A stretch of 64,000 nucleotides of DNA from Octopus vulgaris (taxonomy: Eukaryota). Location: positions 125,860,001 to 125,924,000 of the forward strand of contig OX597817.1 in the NCBI GenBank assembly GCA_951406725.2. Direction: 5' to 3'. Shown here piece after piece: positions 10,233 through 54,590 of this stretch. How positions within the stretch are numbered: position 1 is the first letter of the stretch; each line of letters starts with the position of its first letter. The notes beneath the pieces are model-generated. The model saw only the letters and a list, made by a program, of their open reading frames with translations, did not search any database and had not been told where the DNA came from. The translations under genes and the position numbers were made by a program.

Positions 10233-10455
10233 TATATATGTTATAATCTAGAACAAACAGTAAATGATATCATTATAATACGCGGAGTTTCGAATGTCGG
10301 ACCGAAGAGCTATGATAAAGTCTCGTCAGCTATTAACGCGTCTGTTGTCACTACTAGCCGACGAGAGTGCATTGTAGCTCTTCCCTCCGACATTCAAAAC
10401 ACCGAGTACTATAATGACATAATGTTTCTGTTTGTTCTAAATTATAACATATATA
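10233..10455. mobile_element. Foldback element (~100-bp arms) with a hammerhead motif in each arm, next to (TA)n
   Basis: 10233-10332 is a diverged inverted copy of 10355-10455. Minus-strand arm: TAG-CTGACGA-GA...TC-GAAA-CTCCGCG-TA-TTA. Plus-strand arm: TAG-CCGACGA-GAGTG...CATTC-AAAA-CACCGAG-TA-CTA. Confidence 0.75.
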
Positions 10456-10884
10456 AATAATCCTCTATTAATCTAATATCGAGGTCTCATTCTTTTGTTG
10501 TTACTTTTTATTTCATATATATCTATCTATAAGGTGCAGTGTGCCGAATGGTCAAGAAGTTTGTTTTGCAATAATGAGGTCCCGACTATGATCGGACTGA
10601 GGGGAATTTTCGTCTATCACTTTCTATAGTCTCACGCCATCCCATACATTGCGAGTAAGGTAGGTCTGACGGAGAAAATACGGAAACGTGTTAGCTGGAT
10701 TTTACATACAACCCAAATGACTCAGCCTTTTCAAACTCTGTTTTCCGTTGATTGTAAAATCTCAGTTGCTTATATCTTAATTCTGGATCAGGTAATTCAT
10801 TTAATGGAACAACTGAATCCTCCTTGTGGAATGCTGGAGATCCACTGCCAATCTTTAGCTATTTCTGTGTTTGTGTGCGCCTGT

Positions 10885-10961
10885 GTCTCTCTCTCTATCT
10901 AACTATCTATCTATCTATCTATCTATCTATCTATCTATCTATCTATCTATCTATCTATCTA
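10885..10961 (+). repeat. (CT)n/(CTAT)n microsatellite
   Basis: Read directly from the sequence. Confidence 0.95.
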
Positions 10962-11954
10962 TGTTGTAAGAAAGTCCCTAAGAAGGCGAGACGCCACTTA
11001 GTATAAGGGACTATGAAAAAAGAAATATTAAAACGAAAGGAATTAATTTAGTTTAGACTCGAAAGAGCTTAAGGCAGCAGAAGGGGAAAACAATGAGATG
11101 ATAGAGTTTCTAATCTCGCACTTCGAAGAAAGAAGCTATGACCGTGGAAATGTTTCCTAATTTGTGGAAGCACGACAGTATTCGGATGAAGATACTGGGA
11201 GTTTTGAGAGAGGCGAAATTGCAAAAAATGATCTTCGACAAAGGTTCATCACAACACTTTCTTTGGCTATACCAATGAAAAAAGCTAAGACAGATGACGT
11301 CATGTCGATGTGACAAACGTTGCAGACGTGAAGCAAGAGAAGTCTAATAAGTGTCTCTCTTCTGAACCCGGCCGTGTATATCCAAGTAACATGATGTTGC
11401 ACTTGCCCAAGTAGGACGAAAATGACGAATTGTTGATTGCAATAATACAAAAGGAATGTTCCAAGTACAGATCATGATCACTCAACCTTTTCCGAGGATT
11501 CATTACCATTTTTTTTATTGAAAACTGTGCATACTATTGCTTTTTTCGTAGAAGCAATAGGGTCATGTTTTATTTTTCTTAGTGGTTAACCCTTTCCGCC
11601 TGGGATTTAGGTGACCGAACTCGGGAGTAACGTCCTACCGAGATAGTAGTGGTGCTATAAGCCAATGTAGCTCTATCTTTGTAGCTATTTCTGTAGTAGA
11701 CATCGATGTTCCTACTTCTATAGGCTAAACAATAGTTTCGAGAAGACTTAGCTCAATCATACCGCTCAGTTCCGCTGGAATAGAGAACTGATTTGGTTTG
11801 TCACGCCATTTTAACTTTTTTTCCTATATGAATAATGCCGACTGAAAGTTACTTACTTTCTTTCTCTTCTTCTCTCCCTCAGTCTCTCTCTCTCTCTCTC
11901 TTTTTCTCTGTATATATGTTTGTATGTATCTATATCTATGCACATGTATTCATT

Positions 11955-12145
11955 TAATTATTCTTTTACTTGTTTCAGTCATGTGACTGCGGCCATGCTG
12001 GGGTACCGTCTGTAGTCGAACATATCTTATTCTTTGTAAACCTAGTACTTATTCTATAGTTCTTTTTGTCGAACCACAACTTTACGGGGATGTAAACACA
12101 CCAACACCAGCTATGAAGCTGTAATGGGGGTGCAAAGACATACAC
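11955..12145 (-). mobile_element. CORE-type SINE, 3' half
   Basis: TTTCAGTCATGTGACTGCGGCCATGCTGG...CCTAGTACTTATTCTAT...ACGGGGATGTAAACACACCAACACC matches the 4634 copy. Confidence 0.85.
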
Positions 12146-12335
12146 ATATACATATATGCATATACATACATACATACATACATACATACATATATATATA
12201 TATATATATATATATATATATATATATATATTGTATAGATGGCAATATTATACATAAATGCCACTCCCTAGGAGGGACTCTTAAAGTCATAACTACCAAA
12301 TATAACACATTTTATTTATGATATATTTTGGATTC

Positions 12336-12399
12336 GCTTCACTGAAGAGCAAGGGACGCGTATAACGTGTTAATTGCGAAATCACAGGTGATATGGAGC
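12336..12399 (+). ncRNA. Type I hammerhead ribozyme, apparently intact
   Basis: Stem I GCTTCA/TGGAGC; core CTGAAGA (12342-12348); stem II GCAA...TTGC; GAAA (12378-12381); stem III ATCAC/GTGAT; AUA cleavage triplet with the predicted cut after 12393. Confidence 0.85.
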
Positions 12400-12809
12400 T
12401 AAATTCTGTTTTTAAATGACTCGCTTTGAGAATTGCATTCGGTACAATGTGTTTATATTTGGTAGTTATAACTTTAAGAGTCCCTCCTAGCGTGTGGCAT
12501 TTATGTGTAATAATGCCCTCTATACAATATAATTAAATATTTTCAAAGAAAAAAATTTACAGTTTTTTTCTCTTATGAGGTTTTTTCACGCTAACTACTC
12601 GATAATTTCTTGTTAAAATTTCTCATTAAGATTTTATCCTATTTTAAAAATTTGTTCCGAAAAAGCACGTTGTCTACCGAAATGCAACTCAAAAGAGCCC
12701 GCCATTTACATAAATGTATGATTTGTAAGCATTTCCTTATGCTACGTTGACGGTGACGGTTGTCCACATGGTATGATGCTTTTGTTTATTTATGATATAT
12801 TTTGGATTA

Positions 12810-51969: not shown

Positions 51970-52151
51970 CTATCTATATATCTAACATTCTATCTATTTA
52001 TATATATACATATATATATGTACATATATATATATATATATATATATAAATCTATATGTATATATATATATATATATATATATATATATATATATATATA
52101 TATATATATATATATATATATATATATATATATATATATATATATATATAT
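51970..52151 (+). repeat. Long (TA)n microsatellite
   Basis: Read directly from the sequence. Confidence 0.95.
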
Positions 52152-52344
52152 GTATCTGTTTGTGTGTGTACGTGCGCGCAGGCGTGTATGTGTATGTGAA
52201 GATTTCACTTGAGCAATACTAATAACCAGAACTGAATATGCACATGCATTAGAGAAGAGTATTAGGAGAGTTTAAAGTAAAATGTTAATAGAAAACAAGA
52301 TGAAAGGAGTCACATGATCAAATTCATTAGCTTCGGTTACAAGA

Positions 52345-53739
52345 AGCAATGCAATCAGAATTCAGTGCAACAACTTTTTATACGGACAATCTTTTTTTCA
52401 GGTGCGTCCGACCACATGCCATACATGGGTCTACATCACGATATTTTTTCCGCTTTTCCTGTAAAACTTTATTTGTCTTCCGAATTTTTTGTACTGGTTT
52501 ATGTGAAAACACTCTTTCCGTTGAATCTCTTCCATGTCACGCCTTAATTATAATATCATGTCACACTCTTCCTATAGTTTCTGCTGTGTCAAATCCAAGT
52601 TCGTTTCCAGTTTTGCCAGAATTTTCGTTCGGACTTCTGCATCCCATTTATCAGTCAATCTTGTACAAAAAGCAAACACTTGCAAGAATCTGGCGTAAGC
52701 ATATCCAGACTAAATCTCTTACACTCTTTCTTTACCATGCCTGTCTAAGTAGTGAAATTTTCCCCTTCGCTCTTTTCTGTGTTTAAATATTGCATCTAGT
52801 GAGCTTTTTACACTTAACTCTTTGCTCAAAATGTCAACTGTGACGGTGAGATTTATGTCGGACGTTTTTGTTTTTGGGTGGGGGGAATTTAAACTGACTA
52901 TACTTCTCATGCTCTGCTGTCGCTACTTTTGTTAAACCTGGTTGAGTTTTTATCTCGTCCAGCCAATCCTTGCATTCTTTTTCAAATTTACTGAAGTCTT
53001 CGAAAGTAAGCCTCGAAGGTTACTCTTTCTGCAGGGTCATATTTGAATTCGCTAATGGAATTTGCTACATGGTCAGGCGAAAATGTATTCTCCAGTTCAA
53101 TTATCATTAGTCGTCACACTCCCTGCTGTAATCCTTGTTGTTGTTTGTGTTGTTGTTTGAGTTGTTGTTGTTGCTGTTTTTGCAAGTCAGCTACCCCAGC
53201 TAACAAAGCGTTCATATTGTACGATTTTCATAAGTTTTCACAGTATTTTTGTTTCTCTTCTGTTGAGTTAATTAATTTTCCACGTGTGTCTGTTTAAACT
53301 CTCCGTGTGAATATTTTTGTGTTTCACTCCGCGTAAATTTGTTTTTCCTCGTTGTCACTCTTTTAAAGTGGTGTAATGTGTGACTGCCGTTGTACTAGTT
53401 GCTGTGTTACGCTAGTAGCCACAATACTTACCAGTCATCGGATACGATTGCATCTCTTCGTACAGGTATAGTAATACACTAACTTCTTCTATCTTATCGC
53501 TGATAGATTCACAACACACCGATTAGAACTGTCGACTCTAAACTCTTCGACCCTCTCTTGACGACTGGGTACTGGTCTATTTATTATGGTTCTGTTGTAC
53601 CACTTTTTACCGGGTGGGGTATGCAGTTTCCCAATACAACATTCTCACATGGAGTCGTGGTGCATAAATTTACTCATATAGACTCGAGTCCATATGAGAG
53701 ATTTACTATGTAAATACTGCCGTATTCTGTGCTGCAACA
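52345..53739 (-). mobile_element. Ty3/Gypsy LTR retrotransposon, 5' part (LTR, PBS, gag), truncated
   Basis: LTR TGTTGCA...CATTACA (53739-53372) with AATAAA at 53585-53580; decayed PBS TGACAACGAGG (53357-53347); gag downstream. Confidence 0.85.
52350..53215 (-). pseudogene. gag: Gypsy gag pseudogene
   Basis: MNALLAG..QQQQ..SEFKYDPAERVTFEAYFRR..FEKECKDW..AEHEKY..KCLLFVQ..DAEVRTKILAKLE..PCMACGRTHLKKDCPY (CCHC knuckle), with stops and frameshifts. Confidence 0.85.
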
Positions 53740-54183
53740 ACACAGCTACGTTAAATTCGACATAGATATTGCTTTTTGTCACCAGCAATTATTTTAAAAT
53801 CAGTCTTCTGGCTGTCTGTGATATCAGAGCCTGAAAAGACACTGATATTCTATATGTCATCCACAGTGAGATTCGGATGTTATGTTGCTTCAGGACGTGT
53901 GCCACTGAGCAGCCAAGAACAGGGTAAAATCACGGAAGCTGGCACTTCCGGTTGTTGTAGCAGACGATGTTCGTCTGTTAATGATATTGATATGTGAGCT
54001 TCTAAGCTTCACGAATTCAAATTAGAGGTTCTCGCCAGGTTAATAACGCCGTGTTCGTTGTTCTAACAAAGCATCCACGTTAAGCTGGATGCTCTCTCTC
54101 TCTCTCTCTCACACACACACACAAACAGACAGACACACACACATACACACACACAAAGAACTACACACATATACACATATGCA

Positions 54184-54376
54184 CACGATGTGTGTGCCGA
54201 AAACCTCTTGGCTATGTGTAAGATCAATTCATCATAATTTTATTCAACATATGCACCTCATATTGCAAAGACCTTTTAATTCTTCTAAGCCATGTAAAAG
54301 AGCTAGGAAACTTTGGTGTCCAAACAGGACTTTAGCGATAACCTTAATGACAGGAACTTTTGAGCACCCCCTCGTA
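54184..54376. mobile_element. Mariner-type MITE
   Basis: CACGATGTGTGTGCCGAAAACCTCTTG ... CAGGAACTTTTGAGCACCCCCTCGTA; imperfect TIRs ending CTCG|TA. Confidence 0.65.
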
Positions 54377-54547
54377 TATGCTTTTTCATTATATCTTAGT
54401 CTCCAACGTAATGTAAAATTTGTTTATGAATACAGAAAGCTGTATTATTTATCATGAGAAGACCTCATGTCCTGGCTAGGGGTGTATATAAGTACTCCTA
54501 TTTATATTTATTGATAGACGTGAATCGTTTACTTTTGCTGCCAGAGC

Positions 54548-54590
54548 TACCAGGTACGTTATTTCACTCTGTTTCAGCTCTTCAGTGGTA
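54548..54590 (-). ncRNA. Type I hammerhead motif, two core-adjacent mutations
   Basis: Minus strand TACCA-CTGAAGA-GCT-GAAACAG-AGT-GAAA-TAACGTAC-C-TGGTA. Stem I is perfect; C11.1 has changed to U and U16.1 to C. Confidence 0.6.

Follow-up and report, generated by a model that had tools for sequence, protein, structure and literature searches.

A 64-kb stretch of the Octopus vulgaris genome (64,000 nucleotides on contig C4, referred to below as the window) contains eight sites with sequences resembling the hammerhead ribozyme. The best explanation of these sites, to which we assign a probability of roughly three in four, is that they derive, in decayed form, from eight unrelated families of short non-coding retroelements whose ancestral members carried type I hammerheads, and which were likely inserted by the reverse transcriptase (RT) and GIY-YIG endonuclease of Penelope-like elements (PLEs). 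Both the dependence on PLEs and the self-cleavage of the RNA are features that we infer from the observations given below. The families are labeled F0 to F7 after the eight main sites, and F8 denotes a repeat at 28463/29770 that served as a control. The window has a G+C content of 34% and many (TA)n and (TG)n tracts. Family copies and PLEs were searched in a genome of 2.8 Gb in 227 contigs, where copy numbers of families are first-look candidates, and between 8 and 41 copies were aligned per family and the majority line was read.

A complete type I hammerhead is found in six of the eight majorities (F0 and F3 to F7, that of F7 by way of its passing copies), five of them with a canonical core and one, F3, with a G3-C8 pair. 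The conserved core taken as reference (C3 U4 G5 A6 N7 G8 A9, G12 A13 A14, the pair A15.1-U16.1, and H17) is present in the majorities of F0, F4, F5, and F6 and in five of 21 F7 copies, and pairing of 3 with 8 is retained in F3 and F2. The first-pass annotation of this DNA had proposed at least eight unrelated hammerhead-bearing elements, a claim that holds at the family level for these six of eight but not for the window copies, only one of which is complete. Its related expectation that the consensus cores would be intact is likewise borne out in six of eight families, with F1 failing by a C at position 4 and F2 passing only with 3-8 covariation. Apart from a strict type I/III descriptor, we used a minimal-hammerhead descriptor that specifies a paired 3-8, zero or one extra base after A9, a helix II of at least 4 bp, GAAA, a helix III that is palindromic or a hairpin, H17, and a helix I of at least 4 bp. 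The majorities of F0, F3, F5, and F6 pass descriptors as they stand, and in the approximately 2 kb of majority sequence about 0.001 matches to the minimal descriptor are expected, while three are seen (F3, F5, and F6). Descriptors loosened to admit F1, F2, and F4 were composed only after these families had been seen, and in shuffled sequence they match 0.16, 0.27, and 0.01 times per 128 kb, respectively, the last with U.U allowed.

In the case of F0, the majority is a textbook type I hammerhead with A17, and the strict descriptor is passed by the majority and by 19 of 32 copies, which differ from one another mostly by CpG decay. The first window copy, the only strict-descriptor match in the window, has a 4-bp helix II that is extended by a further 5 bp, together with a hairpin helix III, with a predicted cut after the A at 12393; the minimum-free-energy fold of the motif keeps helix II and not the full hammerhead (z -2.3). 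The anatomy of the window insertion was read from the direct repeat at 474-nt spacing, the inverted arms, and a self-blast, and a spacing of 475 nt was found in one sister locus. With 12311-12470 as the query, 1479 candidates at 91-100% identity were found in the genome. The sister loci start at variable 5′ points, and most of 28 loci continue across the junction between units, such that F0 copies exceed one unit; they have two alternative 3′ ends about 110 nt apart, and a head-to-head partner is often present, with two full motifs in tandem in 2 of 24 distinct loci. Contigs from four sequencing runs guessed to be RNA cover pieces of F0, F1, and F4; these are assembled contigs only, in which ends and circles are not visible. 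Several of the pieces start at 12369-12373, a variable CpG stretch, and not at the predicted cut at 12393/12394.

The remaining five families with a complete motif have minimal motifs with a palindromic helix III. The most numerous is F3 (3733 candidates; query 28036-28280), whose majority has G3-C8, an extra G after A9, a helix II of 5 bp, a 6-nt palindrome, and a helix I of 7 bp, and 22 of 41 arms pass the minimal descriptor. The F5 majority (1653 candidates; query 32100-32280) has a canonical core, an extra A, an ACGU palindrome, U17, and a helix I of 5 bp, with a helix II of six pairs in the scan or of 5 bp (GGCUG/CAGCC) on visual inspection, and the descriptor is passed by 14 of 38 copies. 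For F7 (1713 candidates; query 18470-18592), 5 of 21 copies pass; their core is canonical, A9 is followed by an extra A, helix II has 4 bp, and the palindrome is ACGU. The majority fails only at a CpG-decayed palindrome base, other copies, including that in the window, having ACAU. The F4 majority (362 candidates; query 13240-13620) has CUGAAGA, a helix II formed by U.U plus 9 bp, GAAA, an 8-nt palindrome, A17, and a helix I of 5 bp; it passes once U.U at 10.1/11.1 is allowed, as do 3 of 31 copies. Finally, F6 is an old family represented by eight matches at 68-77% identity, and its majority, with a canonical core and a 10-nt palindrome, passes the minimal descriptor, which none of the eight copies does. 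Pairing is nonetheless kept in 81% of cells of the F6 alignment, compared with 26-39% when the partners are slid, and both sides have changed in 6 of 15 pairs, with both helix I and helix II containing compensatory changes; covariation scores 0.307, compared with 0.244 for shuffles, of which 11 in 500 score as high.

Two families, F1 and F2, are doubtful as hammerhead families. The F1 majority (31 arms; 679 candidates with query 10240-10452) has a 6-bp helix II, GAAA, A17, and a 4-bp helix I, together with a near-palindromic helix III of 4+4 nt around one central C, and its position 4 is a C that lies in a CpG; the T found there in 7 of 31 arms fits CpG decay. The F2 majority (514 candidates, mostly single arms; query 18715-18890) has A3-U8, a 2-bp helix II closed by a GAAA loop, a 6-nt palindrome, C17, and a helix I of 4 bp, and 12 of 32 copies pass the loosened descriptor. 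The long F2 arm in the window and the F7 copy adjoin one (TA)n tract. A lone 67-nt piece that is 84% identical to part of the F2 3′ tail lies at 19107-19173, about 215 nt beyond the F2 foldback. A suspected likeness between the F1 tail and the 3′ end of F5 was no better than in shuffles.

Across families, helix I has 4-7 bp and helix II 4-9 bp, except for the 2 bp of F2, and helix III, a hairpin in F0, consists of a palindrome of 4 nt in F5 and F7, 6 nt in F2 and F3, 8 nt in F4, and 10 nt in F6. An extra base follows A9 in F3, F5, and F7 and is lacking in F0, F1, F2, F4, and F6; position 10.1-11.1 is G-C in F0, F1, F2, F3, F5, and F7, U.U in F4, and mostly G.U in F6. When the family motifs are aligned back to the window, hammerhead-like strings are indeed present where the first-pass annotation had placed them, and it was accurate in this respect; most of its sites fail a canonical hammerhead reading when inspected by eye. 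Three of the core strings that it had picked out (CTGAAGA at 18784, CTGAAAG near 28110, and CTGACGA at 10329) are private to the window copy, while the true family motifs sit in the same arms, with ends on the coordinates it had named. Its three decayed candidates, the pair at 28463/29770 and that at 48870, are rejected as hammerheads: the site at 48870 is single-copy and has no helix II, and the F8 majority has neither GAAA nor helix II, with 0 of 22 copies passing. The F8 result indicates that not every repeat acquires a hammerhead through the reading of its majority. The F8 copies themselves, at 28430-28570 and 29740-29840, are inverted relative to each other about 1.3 kb apart, lie directly to the right of F3, and have about 524 candidates in the genome.

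The second line of evidence comes from how the copies are inserted. The claim that most of the motifs lie in inverted repeats and read outward holds for five of the eight window insertions (F0 to F4), and the same polarity is found in the genome, where opposite-strand neighbors in seven families are head-to-head (outward) at 52 loci and tail-to-tail at one. The F1 to F3 queries were themselves foldbacks, which favors the detection of pairs; with the single-unit queries (F0 and F5) the count is 13 head-to-head to one tail-to-tail, and for F5 alone, in the hammerhead sense, it is 7 to 1. The arms are of two lengths, with the 41 arms of the fetched F3 loci ending either short or about 62 nt farther on and with corresponding differences of about 56 nt in F1 and 70 nt in F2, and one long and one short arm are combined in F0, F1, F2, and F3. 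The target-site duplications (TSDs) of F3, the family from which all our TSD lengths come, measure 10 bp for the window copy, and for three sister loci whose flanks can be read they measure 12, 11, and about 8 bp; most other flanks of F3 loci are (TA)n, in which a TSD cannot be read. The flanks of the window families are mostly (TA)n, as are those of a PLE of this genome. Single copies account for 21 of 26 loci in F2 and 7 of 18 in F1, and F5 and F7 are mostly single; in every family many copies lack the motif.

Table 1. Positions of the hammerhead-bearing insertions and their motifs in the window
Feature	Position	Strand	Description
F0 insertion	12199..13114	+	Inverted 5′-truncated fragment (~12218-12305, minus sense), then ~1.7 tandem 474-nt units, between (TA)n tracts
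F0 hammerhead copy 1	12336..12399	+	Helix I 6 bp; core CUGAAGA 12342-12348; GAAA 12378-12381
F0 hammerhead copy 2	12810..12873	+	Core intact; two substitutions break helix I
F1 foldback	10240..10504	.	Short arm ends at 10240; long arm with ~56-nt extension to ~10504; in TA-rich microsatellite
F1 hammerhead-like stretches	10275-10333(-), 10355-10412(+)		
F2 foldback	18651..18892	.	Long arm (minus sense) to (TA)n tract at 18651; short arm ends near 18892
F2 hammerhead-like stretches	18721-18752(-), 18850-18883(+)		
F3 foldback	28020..28354	.	Short arm ends at 28020, long arm at 28354
F3 hammerheads	28097-28145(-), 28165-28215(+)		Read outward
F3 target-site duplication, 10 bp	28010..28019 (left), 28355-28364 (right)	.	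Read directly from sequence
F4 insertion	13242..13618	-	~280-nt unit 13242-13521 joined to inverted copy of its last 95 nt, 13524-13618
F4 hammerhead	13355-13442	-	
F5 unit, ~160 nt	32117..32278	-	Compound (GTT/CTT/ATT)n tract on hammerhead-sense 5′ side
F5 hammerhead	32168-32213	-	C at 16.1 in window copy
F6 copy	54480..54660	-	Old family; hammerhead 54547-54590(-), core and GAAA intact, helix III decayed
F7 copy	18431..18587	-	5′-truncated at (TA)n tract
F7 hammerhead stretch	18541-18575	-	Helix II and palindrome decayed

The genome contains PLEs that could supply such an insertion activity, with 6136 first-look GIY-YIG candidates; among the 148 matches listed, 16 lie in open frames of 781 amino acids, and these frames carry RVT_1 and GIY-YIG domains (Pfam). 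Many copies of this one PLE have an open frame of identical length and identical domain scores, with an overlapping upstream frame of 300-480 amino acids without a Pfam match, and the identity of the 781-amino-acid frames suggests recent or ongoing activity. Among named records, relatives of the PLE ORF come from bins of bivalve symbionts at about 45% identity, and these are probably host DNA. One copy that was mapped (locus L211) lies in (TA)n and has 495-nt direct pseudo-long terminal repeats (pLTRs). The minimal descriptor has nine matches across 144 kb of PLE loci, compared with about 0.2 expected; five of these are one U3-A8 motif, of which a relative is located in the mapped pLTR at about 85 nt from its end, and two form an outward inverted pair. 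The U3-A8 minimal hammerhead is present in 6 of the 28 sampled PLE loci, one of them in the mapped pLTR. The window itself contains no autonomous Penelope open reading frame (ORF), as had been claimed, since Pfam searches of 17 of its 27 ORFs of at least 110 amino acids returned neither an RT nor a GIY-YIG domain, and tblastn of the 781-amino-acid ORF against the window gave a best E of 1.3. The proposal that the families depend on Penelope draws support from their insertion marks and not from sequence similarity. As to the very large genome-wide hammerhead count that had been suggested, it rests on the first-look candidates of these families alone, which sum to about 10,100.

Two further observations concern the PLE loci. 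Upstream of and into the pLTR of the 781-amino-acid PLE, at L211:6430-6790 and L211:2046-2110, are about five imperfect 60-70-nt tandem repeats, each with a TGATGACGTC-type string that resembles a cAMP-response element, so that the repeats may form a promoter array. Beside another GIY-YIG locus, L196:208(-) and L196:455(+) form an outward inverted pair of complete minimal hammerheads, in which the core is canonical, the helix II region extends over about 57 nt, and the palindrome has 8 nt; this family is absent from the window.

Taken together, these features can be accommodated in a scheme in which a source copy would be transcribed and its RNA cut after position 17, either by two minimal motifs that pair through their palindromes or, in the case of F0, by a motif that folds alone. 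A PLE protein acting in trans would then cut a microsatellite target and extend both of its DNA strands on the 3′ region of the RNA, and the two cDNAs would meet head-to-head in the middle of the element, which would leave the 3′ ends and the hammerheads facing outward. The extra tail on one arm might be left by internal initiation of reverse transcription; for PLEs, the available part of one report explains the one-arm tail by reverse transcription that starts internally (PMC11167929).

Several considerations weigh against this reading. The window holds a single intact motif copy, and its motif density is the same as in shuffles, so that the excess over shuffled controls anticipated by the first-pass annotation is not seen in the window alone: CTGANGA occurs 27 times, compared with 25.6 in 50 dinucleotide shuffles; the strict descriptor matches one site (12342-12393) compared with a shuffle mean of 0.25, and at least once in 19 of 100 dinucleotide shuffles; and the minimal descriptor matches no site in the window, compared with a mean of 0.087 (per 128 kb) in 150 shuffles. 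Rfam searches of the window sequence, conducted for the whole window and for 12300-12900, found no hammerhead at the gathering score or at E<=10. The F1 majority has C at the conserved U4, helix II of F2 has only 2 bp, and the F1, F2, and F4 descriptors are post hoc. Seven family majorities (all but F7) compared with the 28 sampled PLE loci, out of 6136 candidates, show no similarity, apart from a match in a microsatellite and another of 61 nt at 77% identity. The minimal descriptor has no match in the pLTRs of eight sampled copies of the 781-amino-acid PLE, and the motif in the mapped pLTR has a poor helix I. The simple repeat of F5 lies on one side only and, viewed on the other strand, resembles the 3′ tail of a short interspersed element (SINE). 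In addition, the two hammerheads of a foldback transcript are antisense to each other and would be locked in a hairpin, and therefore cleavage could act in source copies only. The available part of a study of an Anolis PLE describes insertion in vitro that is independent of cleavage and no RNA-seq reads ending at the cut site (PMC11167929).

An alternative that is unlikely, though the better of those considered, is that the families are SINE-like and were moved by long interspersed elements (LINEs), with the hammerheads as inactive relics and the inverted pairs due to twin priming or later rearrangement. It would account for the one-sided simple repeat of F5 and for a B-box-like string in the same family, as judged against what we take to be the B-box consensus, as well as for the mostly single copies of F7 and F5 and for the loss of the motif in many copies of every family. 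Against it, the two arms of an inverted pair contain one and the same 3′ portion of the unit, which twin priming on one RNA is not known to yield, and the outward orientation of pairs, 52 to 1, extends to F5 itself. The (TA)n targets agree with those of the genome's own PLE, and the optional one-arm tail is described as a mark of PLEs in the accessible parts of two reports (PMC11167929; PMC3846280).

A still less likely explanation, to which we give little weight, is that the F1, F2, and F3 foldbacks are miniature inverted-repeat transposable elements (MITEs), that is, deletion derivatives of cut-and-paste transposons in which the hammerhead strings are a matter of chance or irrelevant. The foldbacks are short, AT-rich, high-copy palindromes, and a 10-bp TSD such as that at 28010/28355 is also found in some DNA-transposon superfamilies. 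What argues against MITEs is that the arms are unequal, with 56-70 nt extra on one, that the TSD varies from about 8 to 12 bp, that single arms outnumber foldbacks in F2 and occur in F1 as well, and that the palindrome center of F3 differs from copy to copy. Furthermore, the F3 majority passes a descriptor that matches 0.087 times per 128 kb of shuffle, and F0 and F4 share the architecture though their units are not palindromes. Chance resemblance to a loose motif in AT-rich, palindrome-rich DNA, although it agrees with the shuffle-like density and empty Rfam result for the window, with the private substitutions in three proposed cores, and with the outright failure of three candidate sites, is the least credible of the three and is largely refuted for six families, as their majorities restore decayed window copies to complete motifs, with three minimal-descriptor matches where about 0.001 are expected and compensatory pairs in F6, while the F8 control does not become a hammerhead.

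The reading that we prefer, a set of PLE-inserted, ribozyme-bearing families, can be compared with systems already described. The minimal hammerheads in PLE pLTRs number thousands per animal genome and fall into many consensus families (Cervera & de la Peña 2014, PMC4209133). Their helix II is long and their helix I short, position 9 is followed by an unpaired base, and 15.2-16.2 is palindromic; they show U3-A8 covariation, opposite-strand pairs, and low activity in vitro, and type I motifs with a loop-less or palindromic helix III are thought to act as a dimer. Most occur as single motifs, and some as opposite-strand pairs 100-700 bp apart (PMC4209133). The window families share with them the loop-less palindromic helix III (with the exception of F0, which has a hairpin), the long helix II and short helix I, the 3-8 covariation, the division into many families with copies in the thousands, and the dual opposite-strand motifs, and in F3, F5, and F7 also the extra base after A9. 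Several of these hammerhead features had not been part of our first search and yet are in print (PMC4209133), and they are therefore counted in favor of our reading. Unlike the U3-A8 of that report, which is also that of the pLTR motif in this genome, the window families have G3-C8 in F3, A3-U8 in F2, and C at position 4 in F1, and, unlike PLE minimal hammerheads, they have no pLTR location among the 28 PLE loci sampled.

F0 is closer to the animal non-LTR retrozymes, which are defined, and derived from PLEs, in the available parts of two reports (Cervera & de la Peña 2020, PMC7229834; Li, Clavereau & Pollet 2026, 10.64898/2026.07.22.740005). Like the retrozymes described there, F0 forms low-GC tandem repeats that are non-coding and carry one type I hammerhead in each unit; it also has larger TSD-type insertions and co-occurring PLEs. 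Its unit of 474-479 nt exceeds the 150-450 bp printed in those parts for retrozymes, and, unlike retrozyme arrays, most F0 loci consist of one unit or part of a unit together with an inverted partner. The U.U at the base of helix II in F4 has a counterpart in the axolotl retrozyme hammerhead, for which it is reported in the accessible text of the 2020 paper (PMC7229834).

The insertion marks resemble those of endonuclease-bearing PLEs, as far as the available portions of the relevant papers describe them. These include an inverted pLTR, an 8-10-bp TSD, and an optional 31-bp tail on one arm, with head-to-head as the most frequent arrangement and the pLTR sufficient for mobilization in trans (Arkhipova et al. 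2013, PMC3846280); an inverted 5′-truncated copy and a microsatellite bias (Craig et al. 2021, PMC8557442); and, for an Anolis PLE, a protein that cuts and extends both target strands in vitro (Frangieh et al. 2024, PMC11167929). In the window families, partial tandems, an inverted 5′-truncated copy, head-to-head polarity, a one-arm tail, TSDs, and a microsatellite bias are found likewise. The differences from PLEs are that the whole mobile unit here is 100-480 nt without an ORF, and that the tails are about 56-110 nt, as against the 30-40 bp in print in those portions. With MITEs the elements have in common that they are short, AT-rich, high-copy palindromic insertions, and they differ from them in unequal arms, varying TSDs, frequent single arms, 5′ truncation, and an outward ribozyme motif in each arm. 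Among the titles that a literature search listed for Penelope-like elements, hammerheads, and MITEs, none is on MITE-like hammerhead foldbacks, with the limit that supplementary figures of the 2014 and 2020 papers may show similar variants, and a search on hammerheads and cephalopods listed only Craig et al. 2021 as treating both subjects. Since the features match published work, we regard the window as a clean multi-family case of a known kind of element and not as a new kind.

What the window adds is that at least six, and perhaps eight, unrelated ribozyme-bearing non-autonomous families coexist in a single 64-kb stretch, and that their shared Penelope-type insertion marks support the published view of trans-mobilization by PLEs. 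It also provides a caution for annotation, in that short palindromic MITEs in such genomes can be retroelements. Natural core variants with G3-C8, A3-U8, and U4C are now on hand at large copy numbers and would be cheap to assay for cleavage. A more tentative proposal, for which we would put the odds at well below even, is that these departing cores (G3-C8 in a family of at least 3733 candidates, A3-U8, and C for U4) each reached hundreds or thousands of copies through Penelope-type insertion. If that were true, the departing cores might be active in cleavage in vivo, in which case the ribozyme would have a wider natural sequence space, or alternatively cleavage might be dispensable, with the fold serving, for example, in recognition by the PLE protein. 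Many MITE-like foldbacks in annotations of such animals would then be misfiled retroelements primed on both strands.

Two minor observations concern other parts of the window. Below the gathering score, Rfam returns only microsatellite-driven microRNA look-alikes; the dozens of such matches (mir-3149, mir-297, and mir-1277) fall on (TG)n and (TA)n, for instance at 10076-10157, 12127-12195, and 27898-27971, and are artefacts of composition. Contigs from four runs with a presumed RNA origin accumulate at 11946-12059, where their summed word depth is 0.2 to 1.3 million, compared with tens to thousands nearby, and they often break at 11958-11962, 12001, 12026, and 12057; this segment is probably a very abundant small RNA or a SINE-type repeat.

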